DNA of 64,000 bases, taken from NCBI GenBank assembly GCA_963602825.1, contig CAVCKO010000013.1, positions 64 to 64,063 of the forward strand. The letters run 5' to 3'. A program made the translations under genes and the position numbers. The notes beneath the pieces are model-generated. The model did no database searches and was not told the DNA's origin. It saw nothing but the letters and a program-made list of their open reading frames with translations. This DNA comes from Treponemataceae bacterium. Lineage in GTDB: Bacteria > Actinomycetota > Coriobacteriia > Coriobacteriales > Coriobacteriaceae. Positions 18,836 to 39,778 of this stretch are shown piece after piece (positions within the stretch are counted from its first letter, which is position 1; each line of letters begins with the position of its first letter).

Positions 18836-18904
18836 AAGTTGCGGTGGAATAGTTCCTGGATGGCCCTTCTGGCTACATTTCAGGAACTATTTCACCGCAA
18901 GTTA
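18836..18904 (+). repeat. Palindromic REP-like element, left island border
   Basis: TTGCGGTGGAATAGTTCC...GGAACTATTTCACCGCAAGTTA; same-orientation copy at 39711-39778. Confidence 0.85.
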
Positions 18905-18970
18905 TTGGGCGGTTTGGATGGGAGGCGGTATTCTATTCTTTGTCGAGAACAATGTGAGAAAGAAGGCCCC

Positions 18971-19837
18971 ATGCCCGATATCATTCGTATCAGCGATACA
19001 CGGCTCGAGGAGCTTATTGCCGAGGACGTCCCCTATATCGATTTGACGACGCATATCCTGGGAATTGGTGACACGCCCGGCGCCATGGAGTATTACACGC
19101 GCGAGGACTGCGTGCTCTGCTGCACGGAGGAGGTTGCGCGCATGGCCGCCATGCTCAACCTGACGGTTGAGTGGTTTGAGCCTTCGGGCACCAAGGTCAA
19201 AGCCGGGCAGTCCTTTATGCGCGTGAACGGCACAGCCGCCAATTTGCATCTGCTGTGGAAGGTCGGCCTGAATATGTTCGACCACTACTCGGCCGTGGCG
19301 ACCAAGACGCGCAAGATGGTCGATGCGGCGCATGGCGCCAATCCCCTGTGCGAGGTGCTCACCACGCGCAAGAGCACGCCGGGCAACAAAGACCTGCTGA
19401 CCAAGGCAATCGTTGCGGGCGGGGCATTCCCGCACCGCATGGGCCTGTCCGAGACCGTGCTCGTGTTCGACAACCATACCAAGTTTATGACGGCGCCCTC
19501 CGGGGCGACGGGGCTCGACGCATTTATCGAGCTGTTGCCTCAGGTCCGTCGTCGTTGCATTGAGAAGAAACTGTTTGTGGAGGCAAACGCCGACGATGCG
19601 CGCCGACTGGTGAAGGCCGGCGTCGATGGCATCCAGTTTGACAAGGTTCCGGTTGCCGAACTGGCGGCGCTTGTGGAAGAGCTGCACGGGATCGATCCCC
19701 ATGTCTCTCTGGTGGCGGCGGGTGGCATTCGCCCCGACAACGCTGCCGAGTATGCGGCAACCGGCGTCGACGGCCTCGTGACCACGTCGTGCTTTACGGC
19801 AAGGCCCGTCGACATGAGCGTCAAGATGTTCGCCTAG
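18971..19837 (+). CDS. modD: ModD protein (NadC/QPRTase-like)
   Basis: IAEDVPYIDLTTHILG, TTRKSTPG, GGAFPHRMGLSETVLVFDNH, IQFDK, AAGGI; the Q-x-DK and SETVLVF features fit ModD rather than NadC. Confidence 0.88.
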   Translation: MPDIIRISDTRLEELIAEDVPYIDLTTHILGIGDTPGAMEYYTREDCVLCCTEEVARMAAMLNLTVEWFEPSGTKVKAGQSFMRVNGTAANLHLLWKVGLNMFDHYSAVATKTRKMVDAAHGANPLCEVLTTRKSTPGNKDLLTKAIVAGGAFPHRMGLSETVLVFDNHTKFMTAPSGATGLDAFIELLPQVRRRCIEKKLFVEANADDARRLVKAGVDGIQFDKVPVAELAALVEELHGIDPHVSLVAAGGIRPDNAAEYAATGVDGLVTTSCFTARPVDMSVKMFA

Positions 19838-20024
19838 CGCAACAGTCGGGGGTTCGTCAATGACCTGACGCCTGTATGCGCCGCTGCCGCTCGCGGAAAT
19901 AATTTCATTCGACCAAAACAATCTGTTTTGAAAGTCTGATGCGTCTACCTGCGAAAATAGATGTATCAGACTTTTTGTTTGAGTTTGCTTGTCCTGCCGT
20001 TGACGGAATCGGCCTTATATTCTC

Positions 20025-20053
20025 GCAAATAATTATTCTCAACAAAATATAAT
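20025..20053 (+). promoter_or_regulatory. Fur-family-like AT-rich box next to a perfect -10 (TATAAT 20048-20053)
   Basis: AAATAAT-T-ATTCTCA resembles the 7-1-7 TGATAAT-N-ATTATCA consensus. Confidence 0.5.
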
Positions 20054-20104
20054 TCCACAGACTATCGCCATATTGGTGAGATGCTGGAGGAAGGAAGTGA
20101 GAGC

Positions 20105-23100
20105 ATGGCTAAATGCTCCGAGCGGGCCGGTAACGGCCTGGTGAAATGGAATTGGAAGGGAAGGTTGAGCTGCTTTGGCAGGCTTGCAACGGTTGCGGCG
20201 CTAACGGTCACCATGACGACGCCGACGCTTTTTGCTGGCGAGATTGCCTATGCAGAGACGTTGAGCCAAGATACGGTCGCGGCTCAGGCGGCTTCCGGCT
20301 CGACAAGCGATGCGGATCAGTATCGTCACGGTACCGTCCAAATCGACGCCGATACCGCCAAGGATGGCGTCATCACCCTTAAGAAGGGCCAGACGGCGAC
20401 GATCAGGGTGTCGCCGTATATCCACAAGCAGTACAAGGGCTGCGGCAAGACCGGCTGTCCTGAGAATTGCGAGGCAGAGCACGGTGTTGAGTGCTTTGTA
20501 AAGGGTATGGGTTGCAAGTGCGACCATACTCCGGTCGATCGCCAGGCCAAGGTTACGACGACCATCGACAATCAGGATGTCGTCAAGGCCGGCGACGTCG
20601 TGGCCGATAAGGACTGGAGCAACACCAACACCGATCTTAAGAAAGACGACGCCTACGTCACCAAGAACGGCACCATCACGCTGACTGCCGAGTCCGTGGG
20701 CACCGCGCGGGTTACGGTCGCCGCCGAGACCGACGAGAACGGTGACATCAATAACGCATCCGGCAACACCTCGACCCTGCTCGAGCACTGGCACCCCGCG
20801 ACCAAGACCTACACGGTCAAGGTCGAGAGCGATGAACTCTCCCAGGACGAGAACGGCACCTACGTTATCTCGAACGCATCTGACTACGCTAAGTTCGTTG
20901 AGAAGGTTAATGCTGGCGAGTACAACCTGAACGCCAAGCTCACCGCCGACATTGCGCTCGAGGACGGCAAACTGCCGACCATCTGCACCGCCAAGAGCGA
21001 GGCCACGGCGTTCTCGGGCACGATTGACGGCCAGGGCCACAAGATCTCGGGTATCACGTCGTTCTCCGCCACGAGCGCCCCGGCTCTGGTGGGCTACCTT
21101 AACGGCGGCACCATCAAGAATCTGACGCTCGAGGGCACGGCCAAGGTCACATATATGACTGGCGCTTTCGTCGCCAACGCTTATGCGGGCACCATTGAGA
21201 GCTGCACCAATGCTGTTGCCCTGACGTCGACCAAGGACGTCGCCGGCATCCTGGGCGGTCAGGTGTTTAAGTCGACAGGTGAGGTTAAAATTACCTCCTG
21301 CAAGAACAATGCTGCCGTTAAGACAACCGGTAATTCGAGCGTCGCTGCGGGCATTGCGGCGGTCTCTAACAACGGCCCCTCTCTTGCGATTTCGAATTGC
21401 GAGAACTCGGGTGCTATTGAGTCTGCTAAGACTGCGGCGGGCGGTATTGTCGGCAAAACCGGCGGTAACGCTCTTACGGTTAAGGGCTGCTCTAACAAGG
21501 GCACGGTGACCGTTGGTGGCACTGGTGTGGCTGGCGGCCTTGTTGCCAAGATCGAGGGCGGCAAGGGTAGCGTCGTAGTCTCGAATAGCTACAATGCCGG
21601 CGAGATCAAGAGCAGCAACACTGGCGCTGCTACTGGCGGTCTCGTTGGACAGTCGGTGACGAGCACTAATAGCGTCAAGGTGAGCAACAACTTCAACGCT
21701 GGCAAGATTACGGTTGCCGATGGCGAGAATGCCAAGGCCGGTGCCGTGTTCGGTTACATCAGCGCGAGCGGTGCGGGTACCACTACCGCCGAGAACGTCT
21801 CTTATCTTAAGGGTGACCTTAAGGGCGTTGGCACAAATAAGAAGGATGACGTGACTGTTGCCGAGAAGACGGCCGACGAGCTTGCCTCTGAGGATTTTGC
21901 CAAGTCTCTTGGTTCCGACTTTAAGATGGGCTATCAGTCCGGTCACCCGATTCTGTCTTGGGAACCCGACGAGCAGGCTCCGGTCAAAGATCCGGTGATT
22001 AAGGCCGACCAAAAGATTCAGCTGCGCCAGTCCGGCGATACGAGCAGTGTCGCTGTAGCGATCGAGGGCGGTACCGACGAGTGGGCTGCTGCGGTTACGT
22101 CGATTAAGGTTACGCCCGTTAAGGGCGACAAGCGTGGCGACACCACGGAGGTCTCCGGCGACCGCATCACCGCTGCAAGTAACTCGATTAAGGTTACGCG
22201 CGATGATTCGAATCCGGTCTTTATCATCGGTGACAACGACGAGTTCAACGCTGGCGCTATCAGCGTTCCCTCTCGCCGCGGTTCGAAGACCTACCCCAAC
22301 TCCAAGCAGTATGAGGTTGTCATTTCCGCCGAGGGGTACAACGATGTGACCGGAACGGTCAGCTTCTATTCCGGAACCTCGAAGACCTTTAAGATCATCG
22401 TCGACGAGGACGGCGACACGTCTACAACCGACGACCAGACGGTCAAGGGTGAGTGGACCGAGGACCAGCTCAAGGCTATGTCCGGCTACGGTTTCTACAA
22501 TGGTTCTTCCCAGTGCGGCATGACCGGGTTCCGCACATTCTCCGGTCACGGTGTTCCGGTCGAGGACCTGATGGAGGCCGCCGGCGTGGAGCCGTCGGAG
22601 AAGGATTCCTACCTCATCGATACCGCCGATCACTATGGCAACAAGCAGACCTACGAGTCGCTCTTTGGTGTCGACCGCTACTTCCTGCAGTCGATTTATA
22701 CCGATAAGGACGTCAAGGACACCTACGCCAAGCTCGTGAAGTCTGACGATGAGGCCGGCTCGACGATTGAGCTGCGCAAGCTGCTCGCATCCAAGGCGGT
22801 GGAGGAGAAGTCCACCGTTAAGCCGATGATCGCGGTCGACTACAACGAGGCCGTGCTGAGCGGCGATGACGTCGCGACCGCGACGCTGCCGGACGCCCTG
22901 AACACGAAGCTCAGCACCACGACGGCGCTCGAGAACCGCTATCGCTTTATCTACGGTATCAAACTCGCCAAGGATGACTGCACGGTCACGTTTAACGCGA
23001 ACGGTGGCAGCGACGTCGCGAGCCAGACGGTTCAGTCGAACCTGATGACTTCGACCGAGAACACGACGTGGTCTTCTAGCTATTGGGTCTATGCGCTTTA

Positions 23101-26100
23101 CGTCTTCCCGAACAAGGGCAAGGGCACCACGGAGGACGCCAACCCCGAGAAGCTGACGGTTCCTGAGAATCCGACGCGCGAGGGCTACACCTTTGCCGGT
23201 TGGTATACCAAGGACGGTACCGAGACCGGTGACTGGGGCGAGAAGTTCGACTTTACGGCCAACAGCGGCACCGTCGATCAGGATACTCAGCTCTATGCCA
23301 AGTGGCATGTCGATAGCGAGACCGTCTCGCAGACCGGCGAGACCGCCCAGGCCTATCGCGAGGCCCAGTACGGCGAGCCGCCCGCGGGCGACTCTAGCAA
23401 CGCTGGTCAGCATGTCAAGGTGACGGTCGCTTTTGACGGTCCGGTTACCGTTACCGACCAGGCTGCTCTCATCAACAGCCTCAAGTTCTCCGTCAGCGGT
23501 GGCGAAAATAGCACGCTGACCGCTACGGCCGACGGCAATAACCTGGTGCTCGATGTTCAGCTTGGCTTTGCGCTTATGGCGGGCTCGCTTAACGTTTCTG
23601 CTGCAGGCGATGACGGCATCCTCGATGGTGTCACCGTCGATGGCAAGCCCGTTAAGCTCGACAAGATCAAGACCTCGGTCGATACCGGCCTGGCCTTTGA
23701 GGCCGTGAGCGTGGTCAAGGGAACGAAGGACACGCCTGCCAGCACCACCTACAAGGTGACCCATGGCGCTAACGTGCGTTCCATGAACCATATCGTGTGG
23801 CTCACCAATAACGGCAAGGGCACCAAGGGCAGCTCCATCCTTGCTAACACCGCCGATTACTCACAGTCCACGTCCGCACATCACCACATGTGGTTTAAGT
23901 TCACCAACCTGGACTCTGCAAAGAGCATCGTAAGCAATGCGTCCGAGTCCCTTGATGCAGCCGGCTACACCGTGATCGACAACGGCGACGGCACCTTTAC
24001 CATCACCGCCAAGGCTGCCAAGCAGGGCGAGATCCTGGGCGCCGCCAACTACACCGATTCGTTCTTTAACGCGACCGGCATCAAGCTGGGCGAAGACGTC
24101 GAGGACGCCGCTCTGCCCACCGATGCCCTCTCCTGCAATCTCGGTATGAGCTTCCCCGAGAAGGCCAGCCAGGTCTCCACGTCCATGGGTCGTTACCATG
24201 GCGGCAAGACCACGTTCTCGCTGACGCCGTCTGCCGATGCGCTGGCCGACTATCAGGAGACGCACGAGGGCGCCGACACCAAGTCCATGCTCAACGACTG
24301 GATCTCTAACATCACGTCCGTGACCATCGACGGCACCACGCTCGAGGGCAAGGCCTTTGACGAGTGGAAGGACCAGCTCACCAACGCGACCGACGACGCC
24401 GGCAAGCTTAATTACTATGAGCTCACCGCCGGTGGTAAGTCCGCCACGCTGACGCTGCCCATCGCCCTGTTTGACACGTCGCAGGAGAAGAGCACCAAGA
24501 ACATCGTCATCGAGTCCAAGGGCTTTAGCACCGTGTCCGGTGACGTGACCTTCCGCAGCCTCAACTCCAACGAGGTTGTCGTGCGCATCCTGAGCGCCGA
24601 TGGCTCCAAGGTCGAAAAGACCACCACGCTCACCATGGACCAGCTTAAGAACCTGCCGGTCCAGAGCGGCTACACCACGGCCGCTAACTGCGGCATGGCC
24701 GGCCTGCGCACCTACTACAGTGAGGGCGTCCTGCTGACCGACGTGCTCAAGGCCGCCGGTGTGAACTTTAACTCCGGTATGACCCTCAAGGTCCGCGTGA
24801 ACGACCAGCTCCAGAGCAACGGCAACGGCACTACGACCGAGGACGGTTATTGGAGCCAGTCCACTTGGACCTATGACGAGCTCATGGGTACTGCCCGCTA
24901 CTATTACCCGGCTATGTGGGACAACACGACCAAGTATGACGAGCTGGGCGGCAAGACCATCTACGAGGTACTCTCCGAGAACAAGAACGCCTGGAAGGGC
25001 GACGACGAGCAGGCGCAGTTCCTGCGCAAGAAGCTCGCCGAGACCGAGCAGCAGGTGAACCCGATCCTCGCCTGGAGCTGGAACGAGAGTGTGCCCTACT
25101 TTGGTGGCACCAACCCCACGGGCTCCTACGATGGCTACAGCCAGCAGCTCGGCATGCGCTTCCTCTATGGCCTGAAGGCCGATGCGAACGGCATCCCCGT
25201 TGACGACAACACGACGTTTGCCAACACCTACGGCGTGTTCGGCATCGATATCCTCGGTGGCACCGAGGTCACCGAGCCCTCCGTCGACACCGACGTTGCG
25301 GTTAAGGGCAACGCCGCCGCCGACATTTCCGACGCTGCCAAGGACCAGGCCAAGCAGGCCGCCGGCGACATCTACAACGATGTTAAGAACGCCAATACCC
25401 CGAGCGGCATGTCCAAGGACGATGCAAAGAAGCTCGCCGATGTGGCTGCGGCCGCCGACGGCGATGCCGGCGATAAGGTCAAGATGGAAATGACCCTTAA
25501 GGTCGATTCCAAGAAGGCCCAGGATGTTAAGGACGACGCTGCCAAGGTCGAAAATGCCGTCAAGGGTAGCGACTATGCATACTTTGACGTAACTCCCACG
25601 GTAAAGATGACGGTGTTCGATAAGAACGGTGCCGTTAAGCAGCAGTCCGAGGACGTTGAGCTTTCCGAGCTTCCGCAAAACGTGAGCATCGCCATCAAGG
25701 TCGATCCCGCCCTGCTTAAGAAGTTCGTGCGCATCGCTCACGTTCACGATGGCAAGGTGACGTTTGTGACGCCGCAGTCCATCGACCGCAAGAACGGCAT
25801 CGTGACGATCTCGCTTAAGGACTTCTCGACCATCGCGGTCGTCGCGAGCGACAAGGCAAATGTCACTATCGATGGCGTGGGCAGCTTCGATGTGACCTAT
25901 GGCGACAAGATCTCCAAGCCGGCCGACCCCACCAAGGACGGCTACACGTTTGGTGGCTGGTATGCCGACAAGGACTGCACGATCCCGTTTGACTTCGACA
26001 GCCCGGTGACCGAGGCGGACGGCGATATTCACATCTATGCCAAGTGGACCAAGAACGAGTCCACGACGCCCGATACGCCGAAGGGCGATAAGACGAAGGA

Positions 26101-26266
26101 CGATAACGGCAAAAAGGCCGATGATGCGGCGGCAAAGAAGACCGCCGACAAGGGCACCCTCGCCAATACGGGCGACCGCACCTTCGCCATTGCCGGTATG
26201 TGTGCTCTGGCCGGTATGGTTGTGATCGGTATCGCTGTGGCCCTGCGCCGCAAGAACGCCCGATAA
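20105..26266 (+). CDS. Giant sortase-anchored surface protein: six-Cys Ig-like domain, GLUG-like beta-helix, 2x [Shr-HID/DUF1533-like + sulfite-oxidase-fold-like], HxH domain, InlB B-repeats, LANTG anchor
   Basis: Signal peptide ending IAYA; CGKTGCPENC...CF...CKC; repeated GGIVG/GGLVG; WxxxITSxxI...IxAEGY; CGM...GVxxxDxxxAAG twice; PTREGYTFAGWY; LANTG-TM-RRKNAR; AAGGAAG RBS before ATG 20105. Confidence 0.88.
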   Translation: MAKCSERAGNGLVKWNWKGRLSCFGRLATVAALTVTMTTPTLFAGEIAYAETLSQDTVAAQAASGSTSDADQYRHGTVQIDADTAKDGVITLKKGQTATIRVSPYIHKQYKGCGKTGCPENCEAEHGVECFVKGMGCKCDHTPVDRQAKVTTTIDNQDVVKAGDVVADKDWSNTNTDLKKDDAYVTKNGTITLTAESVGTARVTVAAETDENGDINNASGNTSTLLEHWHPATKTYTVKVESDELSQDENGTYVISNASDYAKFVEKVNAGEYNLNAKLTADIALEDGKLPTICTAKSEATAFSGTIDGQGHKISGITSFSATSAPALVGYLNGGTIKNLTLEGTAKVTYMTGAFVANAYAGTIESCTNAVALTSTKDVAGILGGQVFKSTGEVKITSCKNNAAVKTTGNSSVAAGIAAVSNNGPSLAISNCENSGAIESAKTAAGGIVGKTGGNALTVKGCSNKGTVTVGGTGVAGGLVAKIEGGKGSVVVSNSYNAGEIKSSNTGAATGGLVGQSVTSTNSVKVSNNFNAGKITVADGENAKAGAVFGYISASGAGTTTAENVSYLKGDLKGVGTNKKDDVTVAEKTADELASEDFAKSLGSDFKMGYQSGHPILSWEPDEQAPVKDPVIKADQKIQLRQSGDTSSVAVAIEGGTDEWAAAVTSIKVTPVKGDKRGDTTEVSGDRITAASNSIKVTRDDSNPVFIIGDNDEFNAGAISVPSRRGSKTYPNSKQYEVVISAEGYNDVTGTVSFYSGTSKTFKIIVDEDGDTSTTDDQTVKGEWTEDQLKAMSGYGFYNGSSQCGMTGFRTFSGHGVPVEDLMEAAGVEPSEKDSYLIDTADHYGNKQTYESLFGVDRYFLQSIYTDKDVKDTYAKLVKSDDEAGSTIELRKLLASKAVEEKSTVKPMIAVDYNEAVLSGDDVATATLPDALNTKLSTTTALENRYRFIYGIKLAKDDCTVTFNANGGSDVASQTVQSNLMTSTENTTWSSSYWVYALYVFPNKGKGTTEDANPEKLTVPENPTREGYTFAGWYTKDGTETGDWGEKFDFTANSGTVDQDTQLYAKWHVDSETVSQTGETAQAYREAQYGEPPAGDSSNAGQHVKVTVAFDGPVTVTDQAALINSLKFSVSGGENSTLTATADGNNLVLDVQLGFALMAGSLNVSAAGDDGILDGVTVDGKPVKLDKIKTSVDTGLAFEAVSVVKGTKDTPASTTYKVTHGANVRSMNHIVWLTNNGKGTKGSSILANTADYSQSTSAHHHMWFKFTNLDSAKSIVSNASESLDAAGYTVIDNGDGTFTITAKAAKQGEILGAANYTDSFFNATGIKLGEDVEDAALPTDALSCNLGMSFPEKASQVSTSMGRYHGGKTTFSLTPSADALADYQETHEGADTKSMLNDWISNITSVTIDGTTLEGKAFDEWKDQLTNATDDAGKLNYYELTAGGKSATLTLPIALFDTSQEKSTKNIVIESKGFSTVSGDVTFRSLNSNEVVVRILSADGSKVEKTTTLTMDQLKNLPVQSGYTTAANCGMAGLRTYYSEGVLLTDVLKAAGVNFNSGMTLKVRVNDQLQSNGNGTTTEDGYWSQSTWTYDELMGTARYYYPAMWDNTTKYDELGGKTIYEVLSENKNAWKGDDEQAQFLRKKLAETEQQVNPILAWSWNESVPYFGGTNPTGSYDGYSQQLGMRFLYGLKADANGIPVDDNTTFANTYGVFGIDILGGTEVTEPSVDTDVAVKGNAAADISDAAKDQAKQAAGDIYNDVKNANTPSGMSKDDAKKLADVAAAADGDAGDKVKMEMTLKVDSKKAQDVKDDAAKVENAVKGSDYAYFDVTPTVKMTVFDKNGAVKQQSEDVELSELPQNVSIAIKVDPALLKKFVRIAHVHDGKVTFVTPQSIDRKNGIVTISLKDFSTIAVVASDKANVTIDGVGSFDVTYGDKISKPADPTKDGYTFGGWYADKDCTIPFDFDSPVTEADGDIHIYAKWTKNESTTPDTPKGDKTKDDNGKKADDAAAKKTADKGTLANTGDRTFAIAGMCALAGMVVIGIAVALRRKNAR

Positions 26267-26280
26267 GGGCACGACGATGT

Positions 26281-26378: not shown

Positions 26379-27824
26379 ATGAGACGTATGGGACGAATCG
26401 GCCGCGTTCTGGCGGCGGCAATCGCCGGCGGCGCGCTGGTCGCCACAACGGTGCCGTCGGTTCCGGCATTTGCCTATTTCAACTTTGGCACGGTTTCGGT
26501 TGCGCCGGGCGCAAGCTCGCTTTCCGTCGTCGCCGGCGGTACCGCGTCGACCAACGTCTCGGTCTCTCCCTCGAGCCATGCGCAAACGCAAGGATGCGGC
26601 ATGGCACAGTGTCCCCAGGTCTGCAACGGCGACGGCGCCATCGAGGCTGGTTACAGCTGCTTTGACGCCAACGGCCAGTGCACGTGTGCGGGTACGGCAT
26701 ATACGACGTACACGCCCAACGTGAGCTGCGTCTCGAGCAACGCCGGTGTTGCCAGCGCCTATATGAGCGGCAACACGTTAGTGGTAACTGGCAGATCTGC
26801 GGGCACTGCGACGATTTCCATTTCGGCCTCGCTGCGTCAGTGGTCGACGGGGTCGGCATACGTGACGGTTAACGTCTCGGCACCTCAGCAGTCGAGCGGC
26901 GGCCAGCAGTCGAGCGGCAATCAGCAGTCCGTCGGCGCACAGAGCGGCTCCGCCAAAAACGAAGGCACGGTCAAGGCCAACTCCGCGGGTATCCCCGAGG
27001 CGGCCAAGGCGACGGAGTCAAAGTCCGACGAGCTCAACGAGCAGACGGTTGAGTCCGAGGGCGGTACCGTTGTCATCGTCGAGAACAACTCTCATCTCAA
27101 CACGGCCGAGGAGCTCAAAAAGATTGCGGGCAAGGAAAACACCCAGCTGGTGATTTGGGCGGGCGCATCGTCCGACCAGCCCGATTATTCCTGGACGTTC
27201 CGTGGCGAGGATGTAAACGCCGACGACCCCAACCTCGACTTCGACCCCACCATTAAGGTGTCCGAGCAGGGCGAGGGCACGGCTGCGAATCTGACCAAGC
27301 AGGCCAAGGATTCGCGCGTGCTCGACTTTGCCTACAAGGGCAAGCTGCCGGCAAAGGCTTCGATCTATGTTAAGGCCGGCTCCAAGTATCCGGACGAGAC
27401 CACGCTTTCGCTCTTTAGCTACAACGGCAAGGACCGCGTGTTTAAGAAAGCTCAAGACGACGGCTGCAAGGTCTCCAACGGCTATTTCTCTTTTGAGACC
27501 GATAAGGGCGCGACGTTTGCGGTCTCGACCGATGACCTCGCTTCGTATGAGGTGCGCCAGGAGAACACGCCTCAGGCCGCTAAGAAGCAGAAGGCCGCCG
27601 AAGATAAGGCGGCACAGTCCGCTTCGAGCAGCAATACGCTCGTATACGGTGCTGCCGCCGTGGTCGTAGCGGCTGTCGTTGCCGTTGCGGCCGTAGCGCT
27701 GCACCGCAAGAAGAGCGCCGCTGCGAAGGCCGACCCCAAGGACGCTCCCGTTCAATCGGATACGGCGGATGAGGCAACGGATGAGAACGAAGAATCGGAG
27801 AAGGGCAGTTCGAATGACGAGTAA
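26379..27824 (+). CDS. Exported, C-terminally anchored protein with six-Cys Ig-like domain (paralog A)
   Basis: Signal ending PAFA-YFN; CGMAQCPQVC...CFDANGQCTC; SSNAGVA Big_2-like motif; C-terminal TM plus RKK; AAGGAG RBS. Confidence 0.85.
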   Translation: MRRMGRIGRVLAAAIAGGALVATTVPSVPAFAYFNFGTVSVAPGASSLSVVAGGTASTNVSVSPSSHAQTQGCGMAQCPQVCNGDGAIEAGYSCFDANGQCTCAGTAYTTYTPNVSCVSSNAGVASAYMSGNTLVVTGRSAGTATISISASLRQWSTGSAYVTVNVSAPQQSSGGQQSSGNQQSVGAQSGSAKNEGTVKANSAGIPEAAKATESKSDELNEQTVESEGGTVVIVENNSHLNTAEELKKIAGKENTQLVIWAGASSDQPDYSWTFRGEDVNADDPNLDFDPTIKVSEQGEGTAANLTKQAKDSRVLDFAYKGKLPAKASIYVKAGSKYPDETTLSLFSYNGKDRVFKKAQDDGCKVSNGYFSFETDKGATFAVSTDDLASYEVRQENTPQAAKKQKAAEDKAAQSASSSNTLVYGAAAVVVAAVVAVAAVALHRKKSAAAKADPKDAPVQSDTADEATDENEESEKGSSNDE

Positions 27825-32152: not shown

Positions 32153-32155
32153 CCG

Positions 32156-35100
32156 GTGCCAACTCGCCTTCGACAACTGGTGAGGCGCTTCGCCGTAGTG
32201 GCGGCGTGCGCAACGGCTCTCGCTTTGGCGGGGGCCGCGGGCTTTGGTGCGCCGATGGCGTTTGCCGACGGCATGGGCAGCATGCAAAGCATGGGCGGTA
32301 AGGCGAGCTCGGGCACTGCATCGAGCGATGCGGCACCCCAGGTGTCCTCGAAAAAGAAATCAAAGGGTACCATGCACGTCGCGGTCGGCTTGGACCGTCT
32401 GGTGGGCACGAGTGCCCCGGGCAAAGATTCCAAGATGGATCGCGAGACCATGGGCCGCGTCTTTCCCGGTCTGTTGGATATCGAGACCGATCCGGTAGCG
32501 ATTAACGTGGGCAAAGAATGCTCCATGAAGGATCTTTGCGGCATCGATCCCTGTACCTGCGGAAAGCCCGATGCGTGGGGGCATTGTGCCTGCGCGGGCT
32601 TTGAGGAAGTTGCGCCGACACTCTCTATCGAGTCGAGCGACGATGGCGTGGCAAGCGCGGAGGAGTTCGCGGGGCGCTCGTGGATCGTTCCACATGGCAC
32701 CGGCACCGCGGTCATCACCGTGCGCGCTTCGCTGGTCCACTACAAGACGGTTGAGTATCGGTTTGCGCTGACGATTGAGCCGTTCGGCTTTATCGATGCG
32801 CTGCTGATTGCCGCCGCGCTTGCGCTTGTCGTGCTGGTGGTGCTGGCTGTTTGGCTGATCGGCGGTTGCCTGCTGCGCTGCCTTCGCCGCATGGCGCGAC
32901 GCTGCGGCGAGCGTCGGCGCGTGGTCGCCCAGCTTAAGCACGACCATCCCGCCCGCTGGCGCGAGCTTCTTGCCGAGCGGGATGACGGCCCATTTGGCGG
33001 CAGGCGCTTTTTTGGGCGTGGCCGCCGTCCGCACCGTCCAAGGATGACGTTGCATGAGCTTGGGTTTGCCGCGCGCGATGCCATCCTGCCGTGCCTGGCC
33101 GCCATGCTTGTGCTGGTCGTTTTGGTGCCCGTTTCGACGACCGTGGTGCCGAGCATTTCTATCTTTAATATCGATTACACCCATGAGCAGCTCAAGTACC
33201 AACTCTTTGCGCAGGGCTTGGGCCCCGCGGTATCGGCTTGCTGCGTTGTCCTTGGTGCTGCGCTCGGCTTTGCCCTCTTTGGATTTGTGCTGGTGCGTCA
33301 GGCCGTGACGGCGCACTTTTCGGTTGGAATGGCACGCGCACGGATTTTCGCCGTGCGGTTTGCCGCCGGTATCGGCGCGTGTATTTTGGCCGTCGGGGTC
33401 CCCTTTGCCGCGTCACTCGTTTTGAACATAGCCGCGCTTGGCTTGTATCCCGGCGAGCTGGGAGCGTTTGCATACGTTGTGTGCGGTTATGCGCTCACGG
33501 CCGCCGTGTCGTTTGCCATCTCGTCCGCCGCGCTACTGCTCGTCGGGTCGCGCGCCGAGGCCGTGGCATTTGCCGCCACAGGCGTGCTCGGCGTGACCGT
33601 TGTGCTTTGGGCGGCAGGCGTGCTGCTGCAGCAGTTGTTGCCCGGATGTGCCTGGGGCGTCGCGGCGTACAACCAGACAACGCCGATCGAGCCTTCGCCG
33701 CTGTCGCTTCTTGCGTCCTTCAATCCCATATTGTTCTTTGCCCAGATGGGCGCCGAAAAGCAGTTCTTTGCGGCGCTGCATCCGGTGTACTACCCGGTGC
33801 CCGGCAATATGTTGCTGCTTGTGGCCTGGGGCGCCGTTCTGGTGGCGCTGGCCCACGTGGGGGCCTGGCTTATGGAGCATCGTCGCGGCGAGCAGGCCGA
33901 AATCGCTGGCCTGACGCCGTTCGCGACCTATACGGTCTCCGCGGTTGCCGGCCTGGTAGCGTTTGCCTGTGCGCTCTCGTTGCTCGCTCACGCTGGTGCT
34001 CTTACGGCGACGGCTGTGGCGATTATTGGTTTTGCGGGCATCGCGGCAGCGGTGTTGCTCGGTCCCTTGCGCGGCAAGACGCATTCGCGCCGTGTTGCGG
34101 GCGTTGTCGCTGTTGAGTCCGCGGCGCTTATTGCCGTGTGCGCCCTGGTGGGGACCGGTTTCTTTGGCCTCACCGAGCAGCAGCCTGCGGCGGCCGATGT
34201 TTCGACGGTTGAGGTTTCGTGCGTGGGGTCGCCGGCATATATGACCGGTGAGTATCAGGGTGTGACGCACGGCGGTGCATACTATACGACCGCGTCGCGC
34301 AGCTATCGCTCGGCCTCGTCTATAAAGACTATTGAGGCCGCCGAGCGCCTGCTGCTTTCGGACGCCCATGAACAGCTGGGAGACGATTGTCTGCCGCTTG
34401 ACGTGACGATTCGCTATGCACGCAAGGACGGGCGGGTCATAACGCGCTATTACGCGAAGGTCTCGCGGGCGGCGTTCGATAAGCTCATCGAGCTTCAGGA
34501 CGATACCCATGCCCGCAAGCTCGAGGCGGCGGTTATTGCGGCCGATACCACAGGGCTCCAGCGAGATGACCGCGCGACGGTCGAGGCATCGCCACTCTTT
34601 GAGGTCTACAAGACAGGCGACGTCGCGCTTGCCGGTGCCGATCTTTCGGGCGCTCATAAGCTTTCACTTTCGGGCGCTGGCCGTGTCGAGCTCATGTCTG
34701 CACTGGCCGAGGACATGCGCGCCATGTCGGCTGACGACCGCTACGATGCCGCGGCACCAGTTCGGGCAACCCTTTTGGTCTCGACATCGATCGAACAGGA
34801 TATGGGGGCGTGCGGCTACTCGTTTAATTCCTCGGTCACCTATCTAACCGACGCGTACTCCAACGCGCTTGCATGGCTGCGGGGTCATGGCTATGTGGCT
34901 GATGATGAGGATGATGGTGCCGATGGCGTTGGCGCCGATTGGGCCTCTGTTACGCTTGAGCGCGATACGGCAAATCTAACAACACCTCTGAGCAGGTATT
35001 TTATGGGCTACCGTGCCGATGATCCCGATGAGTTTTGGTATGACGGCGTTACGGCGGCCGATCATGCGTCATCGTGCGTCGAGACCGACGATTCCGAGCT

Positions 35101-35263
35101 TATGGCACGTATCGCTCGGGCATCGCGCGCCGGCTGCCTTATGGACGGCGGCTATCTGGTGCGCGCGACGCGTGCCGATGGCGGGTACACGTATCTGTAT
35201 CTGCCCGCCGCCAACGTGACCGAGTCGCTGGAAGGGAGCATCGATGGCCTCTCAAACGAATGA
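32156..35263 (+). CDS. Fusion of a six-Cys Ig-like exodomain and a large ABC permease (paralog of 27814-30045)
   Basis: Signal peptide, CSMKDLCGIDPCTCGKPDAWGHCAC, TM, Arg-rich linker, then THEQLKYQ / PVYYP / RYFMGYR / MDGGYLV shared with the other permease. Confidence 0.82.
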   Translation: MPTRLRQLVRRFAVVAACATALALAGAAGFGAPMAFADGMGSMQSMGGKASSGTASSDAAPQVSSKKKSKGTMHVAVGLDRLVGTSAPGKDSKMDRETMGRVFPGLLDIETDPVAINVGKECSMKDLCGIDPCTCGKPDAWGHCACAGFEEVAPTLSIESSDDGVASAEEFAGRSWIVPHGTGTAVITVRASLVHYKTVEYRFALTIEPFGFIDALLIAAALALVVLVVLAVWLIGGCLLRCLRRMARRCGERRRVVAQLKHDHPARWRELLAERDDGPFGGRRFFGRGRRPHRPRMTLHELGFAARDAILPCLAAMLVLVVLVPVSTTVVPSISIFNIDYTHEQLKYQLFAQGLGPAVSACCVVLGAALGFALFGFVLVRQAVTAHFSVGMARARIFAVRFAAGIGACILAVGVPFAASLVLNIAALGLYPGELGAFAYVVCGYALTAAVSFAISSAALLLVGSRAEAVAFAATGVLGVTVVLWAAGVLLQQLLPGCAWGVAAYNQTTPIEPSPLSLLASFNPILFFAQMGAEKQFFAALHPVYYPVPGNMLLLVAWGAVLVALAHVGAWLMEHRRGEQAEIAGLTPFATYTVSAVAGLVAFACALSLLAHAGALTATAVAIIGFAGIAAAVLLGPLRGKTHSRRVAGVVAVESAALIAVCALVGTGFFGLTEQQPAAADVSTVEVSCVGSPAYMTGEYQGVTHGGAYYTTASRSYRSASSIKTIEAAERLLLSDAHEQLGDDCLPLDVTIRYARKDGRVITRYYAKVSRAAFDKLIELQDDTHARKLEAAVIAADTTGLQRDDRATVEASPLFEVYKTGDVALAGADLSGAHKLSLSGAGRVELMSALAEDMRAMSADDRYDAAAPVRATLLVSTSIEQDMGACGYSFNSSVTYLTDAYSNALAWLRGHGYVADDEDDGADGVGADWASVTLERDTANLTTPLSRYFMGYRADDPDEFWYDGVTAADHASSCVETDDSELMARIARASRAGCLMDGGYLVRATRADGGYTYLYLPAANVTESLEGSIDGLSNE

Positions 35264-36698
35264 GTCGACGCAAGTTGTCGGCCCGGTTGACGTGTCGTCG
35301 ATTTCGGTTGCCGGAACGTCACATACGGTGTCTGTCGATGGGCAGACCAAGCAGATCGAATCGGCGCGATTTGCTCCGCAGGAGCTCGACGCTGCCGTTT
35401 CCCCCGCGTCTATTGAGGTGGGGGTAAGCTGCGGCATGCCCGACATGTGCGGTATCGACCCGTGTCTGTGCGGCACGCCCGATGCGTATGGGGCATGTGC
35501 CTGCAACGGCCTTAAGACCATCGCGCCTTCGGTGACCTACGCATCGTCCCATCCCGAGGTCGCGACCGTCGAGGAGGCGTTTGGTAAGGTGTGGCTTGTT
35601 CCGCACGGCGAGGGAAAGACGACGGTGACCATGACGGCAAAGCTCAAGCACTATCAGACGGCTTCGGTCGAGATGCCGGTGCAGGTTGCCGGACCCCAGG
35701 CGGCCGACGGGTTGCTTGCCGGGGGCATTCTGGTGGTGCTGGCTGCCATAGTCGCTCTGGGGTGGGGCATTCGAAAGCTCGTGTCGCATGGCGGCCGTCG
35801 CTCTGGGCGCGGGGCGGCGACATGCCTGTTGGCCGTGCTTTTGGCGACGGTGACTGCCGGATCGCTCTCTGCGTGCGGTGGTACATCGGTGCAGGTAGCG
35901 GAAGACTCGCCGGTATTGTCTGCGGGCGAGCTTTCGGCCACCTCCGATGCTGCGGATGCCGAGGCATCCCAGGCCATCAAGATTGTTTTGAAGGCGCCGC
36001 GTAAACTTTCCGCGACGGGTGATGCTGAGGACCTGGCCTCCGATTTCTCGTTTAAGCTCAACGGAAAAGAGCTGGATTCCGATGCCATTAAACTGACGGT
36101 TGGCGTGTCGGGCCGCGATGTGACGTTTACGTTGTCGCCGGGCAGCAAGGCTGCCAACGGTCCCGGGTCGGGCGGTGCGTATTTTGCCGTGTACCAGGGG
36201 CAATTCTCGATTGACGCCGCGCGGGGCGACGGGGCGCTGCCGCATCTGACCGATGCCAAGACGGGCGATACCGCTGTGCTGCGTGACGCGGTGACCGGCA
36301 CGCTGCCCAGCGGGGCACAGATTGAGGTCCTCTCGTCAGATACCGGGTCGAGCGCCGCGGGTACGCCGGCAACGGCGACGTTTCGCGTGGCCTCGCCCGC
36401 CCGCGCTCGTGCCATCACGTGGGTTTCGCTCGATGGCGGCAAGACAAAGATCCTTAAGCACAATCATCAATTTGCTGACGACGATGCCGCATCGTATGCG
36501 CAGGATGTGGCTGCCGTGATTAACAAGGCGTCCGAGAACGGGACGGCCGATGCAACGGGCGGCTCATACACGGCACGCGCAATGGGCGATACTGTGACCG
36601 TTCGCTCAAACGAGGTCGTGGACGGGCAAACAATCGAACCGATGCTCGTCGAGGGCTTTGGCGTTACGGGTGGAACGTACACGGCGGAGGAGTCGTAA
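35244..36698 (+). CDS. Six-Cys Ig-like domain + TM + internal lipobox + HxH domain protein
   Basis: CGMPDMCGIDPCLCGTPDAYGACAC; SSHPEVA; two hydrophobic segments; LSAC-GG; KHNHQF. Confidence 0.8.
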   Translation: MASQTNESTQVVGPVDVSSISVAGTSHTVSVDGQTKQIESARFAPQELDAAVSPASIEVGVSCGMPDMCGIDPCLCGTPDAYGACACNGLKTIAPSVTYASSHPEVATVEEAFGKVWLVPHGEGKTTVTMTAKLKHYQTASVEMPVQVAGPQAADGLLAGGILVVLAAIVALGWGIRKLVSHGGRRSGRGAATCLLAVLLATVTAGSLSACGGTSVQVAEDSPVLSAGELSATSDAADAEASQAIKIVLKAPRKLSATGDAEDLASDFSFKLNGKELDSDAIKLTVGVSGRDVTFTLSPGSKAANGPGSGGAYFAVYQGQFSIDAARGDGALPHLTDAKTGDTAVLRDAVTGTLPSGAQIEVLSSDTGSSAAGTPATATFRVASPARARAITWVSLDGGKTKILKHNHQFADDDAASYAQDVAAVINKASENGTADATGGSYTARAMGDTVTVRSNEVVDGQTIEPMLVEGFGVTGGTYTAEES

Positions 36699-37747
36699 TG
36701 GGTGGCGCAACCAAGCGGCGTTCTGCGCGTGCGGATGTGGGCGGCTTTTCTCAATCGCGCGCCGTCAAGCGACTGGCGCTGTTGGTCCTCGCGGCGATTC
36801 TCGTTGCCGGCCTTGCCTTCTCGCTCACCTTGGGTCGATATCGTATGGGGCTTGGCGATTTGGTCGCCGCGCTTGGCGGGTCCAATGAGGCCGCGCTCAA
36901 CGTGTTTTTGACCATTCGCTTTCCGCGCGTTGCCTGTGCCATGTTGGTGGGCTGGTCGCTGTCTGCTGCCGGCTGTGCCTACCAGGGCATTTTTAAGAAC
37001 CCAATGGTCTCGCCCGATCTGCTGGGCGCATCGGCGGGAGCCTGCTTTGGCGCCGCGCTGGCCATTTTGCTCTCGGGCAGCGGCCCGGCTATCGAGGTCG
37101 CGGCGTTTGTCTGCGGTATCCTGGCGGTCGTGTGTTCCTACACGCTCAGTGCCGTTATCGGGCGGCGCATGCGCGGCGTGCTCGTGCTGGTGCTGTCGGG
37201 GCTCGTGGTGGGCAACGTGTTCCAGGCTGGCGTTTCGGCCGTTAAGTTTTTGGCCGACCCCAACTCTCAACTCCCCGAAATCACGTTTTGGCTTATGGGC
37301 GGTTTGGCGTCGGTGCACGAGGGCGACTTGCTCTGGCTTGCGGTGGCCTGCGCGGTGGGTACGGTCGGTCTGCTCGCGCTGCGGTGGCGGCTGAACGTCA
37401 TGTCACTCGGTGACGAGGAGGCGGCCTCGCTTGGCATCGACGTGCGGCGGACGCGGGCACTCGTCGTGCTCTTCGCGACACTGCTTACGGCAGCGTCGGT
37501 GGCGGTCTCGGGCATGGTCGGCTGGGTCGGCCTTATCGTGCCGCACCTCGCTCGTTTTGTCGTGGGGTCGGACCATCGCTATCTCATGCCCGCAAGCATG
37601 TTGTTGGGCGGGTCGTTTCTCATGTTCGTCGACGATATCTGCCGCAGCGTATATACGACCGAGATTCCGCTTTCAATTTTGACGGCACTTGTTGGCGCGC
37701 CGCTCTTTGTGTATCTGATCTGTCGCGGCAAGCAGGGGAGGCTCTGA
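36698..37747 (+). CDS. FecCD/BtuC-family (type II) ABC importer permease
   Basis: IRFPRV, QGIFKNPMVSPDLLG-SAGA, FWLMGGL, LGDEEAASLG, GWVGLIVPHLAR. Confidence 0.94.
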   Translation: MGGATKRRSARADVGGFSQSRAVKRLALLVLAAILVAGLAFSLTLGRYRMGLGDLVAALGGSNEAALNVFLTIRFPRVACAMLVGWSLSAAGCAYQGIFKNPMVSPDLLGASAGACFGAALAILLSGSGPAIEVAAFVCGILAVVCSYTLSAVIGRRMRGVLVLVLSGLVVGNVFQAGVSAVKFLADPNSQLPEITFWLMGGLASVHEGDLLWLAVACAVGTVGLLALRWRLNVMSLGDEEAASLGIDVRRTRALVVLFATLLTAASVAVSGMVGWVGLIVPHLARFVVGSDHRYLMPASMLLGGSFLMFVDDICRSVYTTEIPLSILTALVGAPLFVYLICRGKQGRL

Positions 37748-38553
37748 TGGGGCTTTTGAATGTATTGCATCTGAGCTGCGGATACGGGTCGGCCCCCGTG
37801 CTTTCCAACGTCACATTTTCTGTGGATGCCGGCAGTATTCATGTGCTGCTGGGGCCCAACGGCGTGGGCAAGACGACGCTCTTTAAGACCGTCTTGGGCT
37901 TTTTGCCGGCGCTTTCGGGCGCGATTGAAATTGATGGGCGTGAGCTGCGACAGCTGTCTCGACGTGAGCTCGCCCGTCTGGTTGCCTATGTTCCCCAAGT
38001 GCACGATTCGACCTTTGGCTATACGGTCCGCGAAATGGTCCTGATGGGGCGAACGCCCCTGATGGCGGGTGTGGCGGCAGCGCCGACGCGTGAGGACGAA
38101 CGCGCGGCGGACGAGGTGATTGAGCGGTTGCGGCTCGAGCGCCTTGCCGACCGGGATGTGACGGAGCTTTCGGGCGGCGAGCAGCAGATGGTGCTCGTGG
38201 CGCGGGCGCTTGCAGCGAATCCTCGGCTGATCGTGATGGATGAGCCGTGTGCGAACCTTGATTTTGGAAACCAAGCGCTCCTGTTGACGCGTCTGGGCGA
38301 GCTGCGCCAGCAAGGGGTTTCGGTCCTTATGACCTCGCACGACCCCAATCATGCGTTTGCACTCGATGCGGACGTGACCTGTTTGGGGCGCGATGGCCTG
38401 GTGGCGACCGGCACTGCGCGCGAGCTGCTGTCGCCCGATTTGCTGGGTGAGCTTTATGGCGTCGAGGTTGCCGTTGGACAGATTTATGGGGCTTCGTGCT
38501 CGCCCGTGTTGGCTAGCGCTCCGGTGACCGAGTGTATGGCGGGAAGGGGGTAG
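37747..38553 (+). CDS. FecE/BtuD-family ABC importer ATPase
   Basis: GPNGVGKTT, AYVPQ, LSGGEQQMVLVARALA, MDEPCANLDFGNQ, TSHDPNHA. Confidence 0.94.
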   Translation: MGLLNVLHLSCGYGSAPVLSNVTFSVDAGSIHVLLGPNGVGKTTLFKTVLGFLPALSGAIEIDGRELRQLSRRELARLVAYVPQVHDSTFGYTVREMVLMGRTPLMAGVAAAPTREDERAADEVIERLRLERLADRDVTELSGGEQQMVLVARALAANPRLIVMDEPCANLDFGNQALLLTRLGELRQQGVSVLMTSHDPNHAFALDADVTCLGRDGLVATGTARELLSPDLLGELYGVEVAVGQIYGASCSPVLASAPVTECMAGRG

Positions 38554-38556
38554 ACC

Positions 38557-39693
38557 ATGGACATGTCGAAGAAATGCATGTCGCGTGCGGCGTTTGTGCG
38601 CAGGGTGGCTGCTGGCGTGGCGATGGTTGCTGCGGGCATGGGCGCTGGGGCGCTCTCTGGCTGTGGGGCGTCCGGTGACGCCGATGGTGCGCGTACCGTT
38701 ACGGACATGGCGGGCCGCAAGGTGTCGGTGCCGCACCATGTCGAGCGGGTGTTCTGCACCAACCCAATCGGCACGGTTGACCTGTATGGGCTCGACCCCG
38801 CGCTGCTCTGCGGATGGAACTTTAAGCCGTCAGGCGATCGCCGCAGCTATATCCCCAAAAAGTATCTCGACCTTCCGGCGCTTGGCGTGTGGATGGGCTC
38901 GGGCTCGACCCCCAACGCCGAGGAGGTTGCGGCGCAAGATCCCGATGTGCTGCTTTGCTTTTGGACGGCCGATAAAGCCGGCGCCAAGATGGCCGATTCG
39001 ATTGCCGAGGACACCGGGCTGCCCGTGCTCGTCGTCGACTACGACATTCGCCATTTGGAGCAGGCGTATCAGTTTGTGGGAACGCTCGTGGGCGAGAAAG
39101 ACCGTACGCGCGAGCTGGCGTCGTTTTGCCAGGGATATCTCGATCGCGCCGTCGCCATTGCAGAGGCGGTGCCCGAGGAGGAGCGCAAGTCGATTTTTCT
39201 TGCTCAGGGTAAAGACGGCCTTACGACCGACCCCGTCGGCAGCATGCATGTGACCGATGCACTCGAAATGCTGCATATTGGCAATGTTGCCGACCTGCCT
39301 GGGACAACTGGCAAAGGCATGGGTATGCCGACGGTCAACCTGGAGCAAATTATCAGCTGGAATCCCGATGCCGTGCTGGTGGCCGAGTACAGTATGAGCA
39401 ATGCCGAGAGCTCCGATATCTATGGGGAGATTGTGGCCGATTCGCATTGGGCGAACGTGCCGGCGGTGGCCGAAGGGCGGATCTATCGGGTGCCCCAGGC
39501 GCCATTCTCGTGGTTTGGGCGCCCGCCCTCGGCCATGCGCGCGCTTGGATGCCTCTGGCTCGTAAAAGTGCTGTATCCGGACTACGCCGCCGATATCGAT
39601 ATCGCCGAGGAGACACGGGCGTTCTACCGCGAATTCTTACGCGTCGAAATCGAGGACGACCGCCTGACAGAGCTGCTATCCACAGCCCTCTAG
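38557..39693 (+). CDS. Class III (helical-backbone) substrate-binding lipoprotein
   Basis: LSGC lipobox, VTDMAGRKV, EEVAAQDPD, VNLEQIISWNPD, PAVAEGRIYRVPQAPFSWFGRPPS. Confidence 0.92.
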   Translation: MDMSKKCMSRAAFVRRVAAGVAMVAAGMGAGALSGCGASGDADGARTVTDMAGRKVSVPHHVERVFCTNPIGTVDLYGLDPALLCGWNFKPSGDRRSYIPKKYLDLPALGVWMGSGSTPNAEEVAAQDPDVLLCFWTADKAGAKMADSIAEDTGLPVLVVDYDIRHLEQAYQFVGTLVGEKDRTRELASFCQGYLDRAVAIAEAVPEEERKSIFLAQGKDGLTTDPVGSMHVTDALEMLHIGNVADLPGTTGKGMGMPTVNLEQIISWNPDAVLVAEYSMSNAESSDIYGEIVADSHWANVPAVAEGRIYRVPQAPFSWFGRPPSAMRALGCLWLVKVLYPDYAADIDIAEETRAFYREFLRVEIEDDRLTELLSTAL

Positions 39694-39710
39694 ATACACA
39701 GACGCTCATT

Positions 39711-39778
39711 CTAACTTGCGGTGAAATAGTCCCCGAGGGCCCTTCGGGCCGCATTGGAACTATTTCACCGCAAGTTAG
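39711..39778 (+). repeat. Palindromic REP-like element, right island border (may act as terminator)
   Basis: CTAACTTGCGGTGAAATAGT...ACTATTTCACCGCAAGTTAG; 22 bp identical to 18883-18904. Confidence 0.85.

Follow-up and report, generated by a model that had tools for sequence, protein, structure and literature searches.

Gene content of the cluster

This study concerns an eleven-gene cluster at positions 18836-39778 of a 64,000-nucleotide stretch of contig CAVCKO010000013.1 (assembly GCA_963602825.1, named for a Treponemataceae bacterium and placed by GTDB lineage in the Coriobacteriaceae); we refer to that whole stretch as the window. The cluster probably encodes an accessory cell-surface capture-and-import system. 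Its genes all lie on the + strand, from modD through a binding lipoprotein gene:

18971..19837, + strand: modD, QPRTase-fold protein of 288 amino acids (aa) from the likely ATG (TIGR01334; longest open reading frame from 18818)
20081..26266, + strand: wall protein, 2,061 aa; signal peptide without twin arginine, LANTG sorting signal at 2027
26379..27824, + strand: cysA, 481 aa; signal peptide, six-Cys Big_2-like immunoglobulin-like (Ig) domain, second extracellular domain, C-terminal transmembrane (TM) anchor
27769..30045, + strand: permease 1, ABC-2-like; at least 8 hydrophobic segments, then ~360 aa of soluble domain at the C-terminus; matches no Pfam family
30052..30786, + strand: ABC ATPase of ABC-2 exporter type; best NCBIfam models lantibiotic-protection, PmtA and DrrA, all below cut-off
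30812..32152, + strand: cysB, 446 aa; cysA paralogue (33%) with a Met-rich stretch preceding the TM anchor
32156..35263, + strand: permease 2; carries a six-Cys Ig domain and TM segment ahead of a permease body that shares 39% identity with permease 1
35244..36698, + strand: cysC; six-Cys Ig domain, TM segment, lipobox-like segment, HxH unit (HNH at 406)
36698..37747, + strand: FecCD/BtuC-fold importer permease; nearest solved relative HI1471 (MolB)
37747..38553, + strand: importer ATPase (family scans)
38557..39693, + strand: class III binding lipoprotein; conserved Met/His/Cys residues and WFGRPP

From cysA onward the genes overlap or are separated by at most 25 bp, while 243 bp lie between modD and the wall-protein gene and 112 bp between the latter and cysA. 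A preliminary description of this DNA had reported eleven co-oriented, mostly overlapping or abutting genes, among them modD, a wall-anchored protein of about 2,000 aa, a FecCD-type importer and two paralogous permeases with one ATPase, and all of this is borne out by the family scans and the sequence. The scans name ModD, the two ABC ATPases, the FecCD permease and the class III binding protein; the remaining six proteins gave weak or partial family matches only. No cytochrome or iron-sulfur (Fe-S) protein that could serve as an electron-transfer partner was found among the cluster genes (Pfam, NCBIfam), and the window gave no Rfam match to a riboswitch or other RNA.

The wall protein

The wall protein is a mosaic whose modules differ in number and order among strains. 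It carries the combination expected of a sortase-anchored protein (LANTG, TM segment and basic tail), and a homologue gave a Gram_pos_anchor match. Its parts are as follows:

residues ~78-250: six-Cys Ig domain
residues ~255-630: Gly-rich repeat region
residues ~640-1075: module 1, haemoglobin-interacting-domain (HID)-like plus sulfite-oxidase (SUOX), with Cys812
22373..23116, + strand: SUOX-like domain 1 with SSQCGMTG motif, its fold suggested by similarity to domain 2
residues 1080-1325: HxH unit, HHH at 1267
residues 1350-1730: module 2, HID-like plus SUOX, with Cys1537
24563..25270, + strand: predicted SUOX-fold domain 2 with AANCGMAG motif (AlphaFold2 (AF2) model), the Cys at the tip of a predicted beta-hairpin
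C-terminal part: List_Bact repeats, then LANTG (2027), hydrophobic segment, basic tail

Each module appears to join an Ig domain resembling the HID of Shr to a SUOX fold, for domain 1 by similarity only; the two modules are 25% identical (E 1.6e-13). Module 2 was modelled with AF2 from 29 sequences (pLDDT 93). Its N-domain resembles the Shr HID (6dkq, Foldseek prob 1.00; 7cud, Z 6.0; PF07550), and its C-domain is predicted to adopt the SUOX fold: in the VIA structural comparison, ranks 1-10 of 48,161 chains all belong to the SUOX family, with Z 9.5-7.0 and superposition at a root-mean-square deviation of 3.0-3.7 A over 127-141 residues. These ten comprise SoxC, PruR (2), SorA, SorT, sulfite oxidase (2), nitrate reductase, Thermus sulfite dehydrogenase and YedY; seven of them reach a Z of at least 8, a value below which matches may be commonplace, and the best unrelated row stands at 6.5.

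In the module 2 model, DSSP places predicted strands at 178-187 and 193-202, with Cys1537 between them. According to the available part of PMC11194511, the molybdenum-ligating Cys of SUOX enzymes ends a long beta-hairpin and the pterin-only PruR has Trp there; the modelled position of Cys1537, when the DSSP strands are set against that description, agrees with the published hairpin tip. The motif C-G-[MH]-x-G-x-R, including the Cys at the Mo-ligand position, is present in 21 of 21 aligned copies, which were chosen from homology-search matches with near-identical ones excluded (alignment A4). Beyond a weak PF00174 lead (0.76) and Big_2 clusters, the atlas searches returned nothing else. By eye, no twin-arginine motif was seen at the N-terminus of the wall protein, so the SUOX domain likely arrives at the wall empty.

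Copies of the SUOX domain are repeated and shuffled, one to three per locus. In five Collinsella-type loci (L006, L007, L035, L036 and L037) the wall protein measures ~854-889 aa after in-frame loss of residues ~100-1043; the six-Cys domain, the repeat region and SUOX module 1 are lost there, and the HxH unit and module 2 are kept.

Distribution of the cluster

A search with the large permease found matches in 0 of 60 relatives, in 2 of 400 genomes of the genus and in 13 of 400 genomes of the order (four other families), and collection scans yielded 18 and 15 loci. A neighbourhood comparison of the kind proposed in the preliminary description showed that Collinsella, Gordonibacter, Eggerthella, Adlercreutzia and some further genera share the gene order, though the cluster is rare. 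The window permease is 91-92% identical to records titled Collinsella; named carriers include Gordonibacter sp. 28C, Gordonibacter sp. Marseille-P2775, Eggerthella sinensis, Adlercreutzia, Cryptobacterium and Paratractidigestivibacter. Most often the cluster begins with one or more surface proteins, after which come cysB, cysA, one permease with a fused six-Cys domain, ATPase and six-Cys-TM protein, followed by HxH protein, FecCD permease, ATPase and binding protein. Five distant loci (G697, G767, G605, G557 and G508) keep the six-Cys and HxH proteins and both ABC systems, and mostly modD.

Permease homologues also occur in Ethanoligenens, Oscillospiraceae and Anaerovoracaceae. Four loci bear Bacillota or archaeal titles (cluster genes of L004 and L005 95-98% identical to those of the window, of L016 and L017 ~50-57%) and are probably mislabelled or misbinned; several Bacillota-titled records match at 95-99% and probably carry wrong labels. 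The locus tags of the Gordonibacter sp. 28C cluster were not found in the supplements of PMC11887054 (1 file) or PMC7028382 (12 of 14 files).

Linkage to modD and other molybdenum genes

ModD of the window scores 197.7 bits against TIGR01334 (cut-off 178.85). A modD gene is present in 10 of the 13 permease-carrying genomes of the order vs 93 of 400 order genomes overall, a comparison in which related genomes do not count as independent. Gordonibacter sp. Marseille-P2775 has, in order, modD, copZ-like, modA, modB, modC, an insertion-sequence (IS)-like gene, modG, luxR and wall-protein gene, with modD, the CopZ-like gene, modABC and modG all at most 9 kb upstream of the wall-protein gene; modG is also found in L039 and L135. 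In 20 modD loci of non-carriers, searched over a wider region, no cluster domain was found, and modA and modB are adjacent in three. We know of no established function for ModD. In Haemophilus, molABC is clustered with modD, as given in the accessible text of PMC3928620.

The co-occurrence of MoaC with the cluster was considered as a test and set aside as uninformative, since 136 of 150 genomes of the genus, mostly without the cluster, have MoaC, as do 5 of 5 carriers tested.

Molybdopterin oxidoreductase genes lie near cluster genes in L092, L093 and L009, and moaA in L094; both are abundant in these taxa, so their nearness may be chance. Elsewhere, contig C15 of G000 carries at 38410-39699 a molybdopterin oxidoreductase gene with one in-frame TGA, probably a selenocysteine formate dehydrogenase. 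On the same contig are moeA, a gene of the ModA family, another molybdopterin oxidoreductase and an N-terminal match to the NiFe-hydrogenase family.

Regulation

The preliminary description had noted a Fur-like box upstream. The feature in question is:

~20027..20041, + strand: AT-rich Fur-like stretch, 11/15 match to the 7-1-7 consensus, overlapping a -10-like TATTCT

Scored against a 7-1-7 Fur consensus, the window reaches 11/15, four close relatives 9, 9, 11 and 8, and ten other upstream regions at most 9. The -10-like TATTCT that overlaps the stretch is also seen in several relatives, and the stretch is more likely part of a promoter -10 region. The host genome encodes Fur, but the palindrome is not kept in relatives, and the Fur reading of the earlier account is not supported.

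A different element recurs. An operator specific to this locus, CTGTAC-N5-GTACAG or a one-base variant, lies upstream in L008, L010, L011, L012, L013, L015, L018, L039, L040, L043, L046 and L088, and in three whole genomes the pattern occurs 5 times, always before modD or the wall-protein gene, with 0 control matches. L044/L045, the distant loci and the window gave no match to it, nor did the region before modD of L019. In Gordonibacter, Eggerthella and Adlercreutzia a membrane LuxR gene with a helix-turn-helix (HTH) domain is divergent from the wall-protein gene; the window's genome gave no match to this regulator. Membrane LuxR regulators activate adjacent genes upon specific substrates, as stated in the available sections of PMC9734109, and the one encoded here may bind CTGTAC-N5-GTACAG. 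A dedicated operator together with a membrane LuxR gene in Eggerthellaceae relatives suggests induction by a ligand rather than by iron limitation.

The organic nature of the substrates to which membrane LuxRs respond, as far as that source goes, lends itself to another explanation, in which the locus takes up a specific organic ligand (a pterin, a nucleotide-like cofactor or something diet-derived), or is an adhesin locus with a co-located importer, and metals are incidental. The SUOX fold binds pterins other than the molybdenum cofactor (Moco) in PruR, as described in the part of the PruR literature at hand, and PruR is the joint best structural match (Z 9.4); ModD has a phosphoribosyltransferase fold and the wall-protein domains are freely shuffled. 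The Cys that PruR lacks is invariant here, however, and invariant Cys, His and Met in three unrelated domains point to metal ligation; we regard this explanation as quite unlikely.

Membrane-tethered six-Cys and HxH proteins

Five proteins carry the six-Cys motif within a Big_2-like Ig domain: the wall protein, the three encoded by cysA, cysB and cysC, and permease 2, which has it at its N-terminus. The preliminary description had counted four further six-Cys proteins besides the wall protein; the motif is indeed in five proteins, but one instance is the N-terminus of permease 2 and the stand-alone proteins number three. The spacings are of two kinds, C-x5-C-x4-C-x-C-x8-C-x-C and CGMxxCPxxC-xn-C-x6-C-x-C. 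In most relatives the equivalent of cysC is two separate genes.

The HxH unit is common to cysC and the wall protein, and its Arg, His and His are invariant across 36 sequences. Its model (pLDDT 94) found no structural relative reaching Z 8, with matches to Ig-like and flagellin-D2-like parts only; PDB sequences gave no credible match, and an HxH profile run against 200 genomes of the phylum found nothing. A complex prediction for permease 1 with the six-Cys-TM module scored 0.01, which counts neither for nor against their interaction.

These domains could alternatively serve the handling of copper or another soft metal, with CGM six-Cys knots, HxH units and Met-rich stretches binding Cu(I) for a CopZ-like chaperone to receive; a hybrid version would have copper-thiomolybdate captured. 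Such a role would suit the conservation of all six Cys and a near-invariant Met (alignment A7), the fusion of the HxH unit to HMA and DsbD_2 domains in G605, the presence of CopC among the HxH-unit matches (Z 5.9) and the CopZ-like HMA gene that adjoins modD in eight loci (L031, L032, L033, L039, L040, L081, L084 and L088). The CopC match, however, is background for Ig folds, a CopZ-like query found no match in the window's genome, extracellular six-Cys knots may be merely three disulfides, and this anaerobe has no evident need of copper. We judge copper handling to be distinctly unlikely.

Transporters

Against solved structures, the importer permease matches HI1471/MolB best (217 bits), then HmuU (168) and BtuC (115). 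The binding protein matches, in order, 4PAG (E 1e-53), 4OVK and MolA (E 7e-18); our literature search for 4PAG found no paper. Across 19 binding-protein sequences Met113, His231, Met255, Met257, Met280, Cys67, Cys134 and WFGRPP are conserved, and the alignment shows no evident counterpart of the side chains that we take to hold the oxyanion in MolA. An RRxF signal is present in 20 of 26 listed homologues; five of Collinsella type have a degenerate form like that of the window and 1 is truncated.

In IsdE, heme is ligated by Met and His. The conservation of Met113 and His231 is thus one of several points that would fit uptake of heme or an iron chelate of the Isd/Shr kind, in which HID-like and leucine-rich-repeat (LRR) domains grip host haemoproteins, carriers with Cys, His and Met pass the heme along and the FecCD importer completes the path: the module 2 N-domain matches the Shr HID, HmuU is the second solved match for the importer permease, and distant loci swap the receptor for LRR proteins. 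Yet none of the 11 cluster proteins has a NEAT or HtaA family match (Pfam, E 0.01 for NEAT), the HID is a generic Ig fold whose Z of 6.0 is shared territory with many Ig rows, relatives do not keep the Fur box, and the IsdE match of the binding protein is weak (E 5e-5). Heme uptake would also leave modD, modABC, modG and the SUOX fold unexplained, and we consider it unlikely.

The second ABC system is of another kind. The two large permeases share 39% identity across 732 aa (33% for cysA vs cysB), and each has at least 8 hydrophobic segments and a long soluble tail. Their family is broad and unnamed (1,272 representatives at E 0.001), with a weak DUF6449 match in 1 of the 16 tested. The paralogous pair noted in the preliminary description is present in the window, but it is a feature of the lineage, since most relatives carry one permease and two are found only in Collinsella loci and L016. 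Permease 2 sits on a long branch of a tree of 26 untrimmed sequences (FastTree), which we did not use for claims of transfer. Inside the cluster, G697 and G767 also carry an extra FtsX/MacB-type permease and ATPase (L081:17587-19495 and L083:12218-14115).

The exporter type of the ATPase brings to mind ABC machines such as NosDFY and CcmAB, which drive extracytoplasmic cofactor hand-off. By analogy, the direction of traffic might be outward, the wall protein being an extracellular molybdenum enzyme into which the ABC-2-like transporter exports or inserts cofactor, NosDFY-like, while the FecCD importer and ModD supply metal or take up product. Retention of the catalytic-position Cys in the SUOX fold would be in keeping with this, and the lack of a twin-arginine signal would place cofactor loading outside. 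The exporter-like core remains, however, where the SUOX domain was not found, the cluster encodes no cytochrome or Fe-S partner, and the repeated, shuffled copies (one to three per locus) resemble a receptor; outward maturation therefore seems to us improbable.

Boundaries and flanks

The ends of the cluster and the gene beyond it are as follows:

18836..18904, strand not assigned: palindromic repetitive-extragenic-palindromic (REP)-like repeat, left copy, of a genome-wide family
39711..39778, strand not assigned: palindromic REP-like repeat, right copy, immediately beyond the larE 3' end
39789..40667, - strand: larE (TIGR00268, over cut-off)

A repeat at each end had been reported for this DNA and is present at both, but it belongs to a palindromic family with 23 places in the genome and is not specific to the island. 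Seven island-free larE loci could be compared: one repeat copy joins the flanks in two (G004 and G009), other sequence does so in three, half the repeat is matched in one, and the junction of L109 was not resolved. In G224 and G368, modD is followed directly by the palindrome and then larE. By this comparison the site has three states, namely empty, modD only, and modD plus ten genes, and the variable unit is the ten-gene operon at ~19840-39710. Three further loci (L144, L146 and L155) have modD beside the sigma-factor or EF-G-like flank that trails the operon in carriers, with the operon absent; these are further modD-only states outside Collinsella.

Two ideas about mobility were rejected. 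The end repeats are not att sites, given that their family is genome-wide and that several carriers differ after the last gene; nor is the cluster an integrative mobile island, with no integrase among the 18 window open reading frames scanned (Pfam, NCBIfam), no unique repeats, no tRNA in the window and no shift in GC content (0.57-0.64 inside the cluster vs 0.52-0.63 in the rest of the window). To us the locus looks accessory and sited at a repeat-rich hotspot, rather than self-mobile. The larE gene was likewise dismissed as a partner (a nickel-pincer idea): it is present in 11 of 12 genus genomes irrespective of the cluster, and in those non-Collinsella loci that were examined it does not neighbour the cluster. 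Its 3' end is the hotspot at which modD and the operon are present in some genomes and absent from others.

Several other elements flank the cluster. A dispersed repeat of ~54 nt at 18775-18828 and 44375-44428 has 30 places in the genome and often adjoins the palindromic repeat in relatives. An AlbA_2/RecG-C-terminal/HTH protein is encoded at 16979-18679 (+ strand) after an 86-nt inverted repeat at 16890-16975; it has three paralogues in the genome, and its gene precedes modD in L003, L005, L007, L035 and L037 but not in L006 or L036. Beyond larE, an AAA_14/DUF4143 ATPase gene (41626-42987, - strand) is absent at this site in several relatives, and three imperfect repeats with 33-nt spacing lie just upstream of it (43020-43136).

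Discussion

The gene content, and the conservation of the cluster elsewhere, support the Isd-like relay that the preliminary description had proposed, and we think it quite probable that the cluster is an accessory cell-surface capture-and-import relay with that kind of architecture. The same description held that the substrate could not be narrowed, which now looks too pessimistic: the predicted SUOX fold and its Cys, the resemblance of the permease to MolB, and the linkage to modD, modABC and modG, together with co-regulation, favour molybdenum or tungsten, although these lines are only partly independent. We tentatively suggest that the cargo is a molybdenum or tungsten species, either molybdopterin-bound molybdenum or some other thiolate-chelated form. 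More specifically, the system might scavenge intact Moco from the gut lumen, with the SUOX folds as Moco receptors, followed by carriers, an ATP-driven unloader and a MolB-like importer; this version we regard as rather unlikely.

In such a relay, the wall protein would be exported by Sec without cofactor and anchored by sortase, and its SUOX domains would bind the compound with the conserved Cys as metal ligand. The membrane-tethered six-Cys Ig proteins and the HxH proteins would then hand the compound inward, the ABC-2-like permease and its ATPase might, more speculatively, power unloading or resetting of the carriers, and the binding lipoprotein and BtuC-fold permease would, to judge by their families, import it. 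A step in the cytoplasm, in processing or signalling, could fall to ModD. In Eggerthellaceae, the membrane LuxR likely activates modD and the operon through the shared operator.

A number of observations weigh against a molybdenum or tungsten cargo. In G697, G767 and G605 a BspA-type LRR protein replaces the SUOX receptor (LRR_5 by Pfam for G697, by eye for G767 and G605). L081-L087 and L091-L095, several of them cut by contig ends, gave no SUOX match. The PF00174 match of SUOX domain 2 falls below cut-off (17.9 bits vs 24, E 0.0025), and alignment A4 run against PDB sequences found no SUOX structure. The binding protein is far nearer 4PAG than MolA, and its conserved Met, His and Cys residues would be better suited to heme or a soft metal than to an oxyanion; the Met/His motifs and the CopZ-like gene beside modD also suit copper or heme. 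The window has neither operator nor LuxR gene, and modD often occurs without the operon. The host, moreover, has MoaC, MoeA and a ModA-family gene and so makes its own Moco, which, together with the many mostly cluster-less genomes that have MoaC, argues that there is no dependence on scavenging.

Comparison with known systems shows both resemblance and difference. Like Isd of Staphylococcus and Shr/Sia of Streptococcus, the cluster has a sortase-anchored receptor, membrane-tethered accessories, a type II FecCD importer (PF01032, PF01497) and a Shr-HID-like Ig domain; unlike them, it has no NEAT match and no conserved Fur box, its surface proteins carry SUOX-fold, six-Cys and HxH domains instead, and modD and a further, ABC-2-like machine are present. 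Haemophilus MolABC-ModD (HI1470-1473) shares the MolB-closest permease, a MolA-related binding protein and the link to modD but lacks a wall receptor and carriers, and the cluster's binding protein differs in being closer to 4PAG, with conserved Met and His. With the SUOX family (SorA, SoxC, MsrP/YedY) the wall protein shares the predicted fold and the Cys at the hairpin tip, whereas here the module is repeated in a wall-anchored protein without twin arginine, has a HID-like partner and large insertions (~130-140 residues aligned), and lies near no redox partner. PruR, in the material available on it, is small and periplasmic, has Trp for Cys and is encoded upstream of a DcpA-type gene; the wall protein keeps the Cys, has 2,061 aa and is accompanied by no DcpA-type gene. 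As with NosDFY and CcmAB, the cluster encodes an ATPase of exporter type and a permease next to surface proteins that are candidate metal binders, but its genes gave no NosD, NosL or NosZ match (Pfam, NCBIfam) and its permease comes from a large unnamed family.

The preliminary description knew of no characterised system of this composition, and we found none in the literature that describes the cluster or bacterial Moco uptake, judging by titles and the starts of abstracts, with most subscription journals uncovered. Wall capture and import of a molybdenum compound, if that is the role of the cluster, would be a route that our literature searches did not turn up. What is new is a wall protein with two predicted HID-like plus SUOX modules, a Cys at the Mo-ligand position in 21 of 21 copies, a locus-specific operator and linkage to mod genes. 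The cluster adds three uncharacterised modules (a wall-displayed SUOX fold, a six-Cys Ig knot and the HxH unit) and gives ModD a co-regulated context. A 2018 survey gives ModABC, WtpABC and TupABC as the only prokaryotic molybdenum and tungsten transporters and suggests that there are more (PMC6147048, as far as its available text goes).

The system is open to experiment, for named isolates carry the cluster and genetic tools are available for Coriobacteriia, according to the part of PMC9734109 that describes them. Protein-bound dietary Moco is bioavailable to C. elegans, according to the accessible text of PMC7849362, and Moco movement between organisms is an open question. In the portions of the literature available to us, Gordonibacter and Eggerthella need molybdoenzymes for drug and dietary polyphenol metabolism, and Gordonibacter pamelaeae has 73 molybdoprotein genes. 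Surface capture, if true, would bear on competition for molybdenum in the gut, and Moco scavenging, if true, would serve Coriobacteriia that run many molybdoenzymes.

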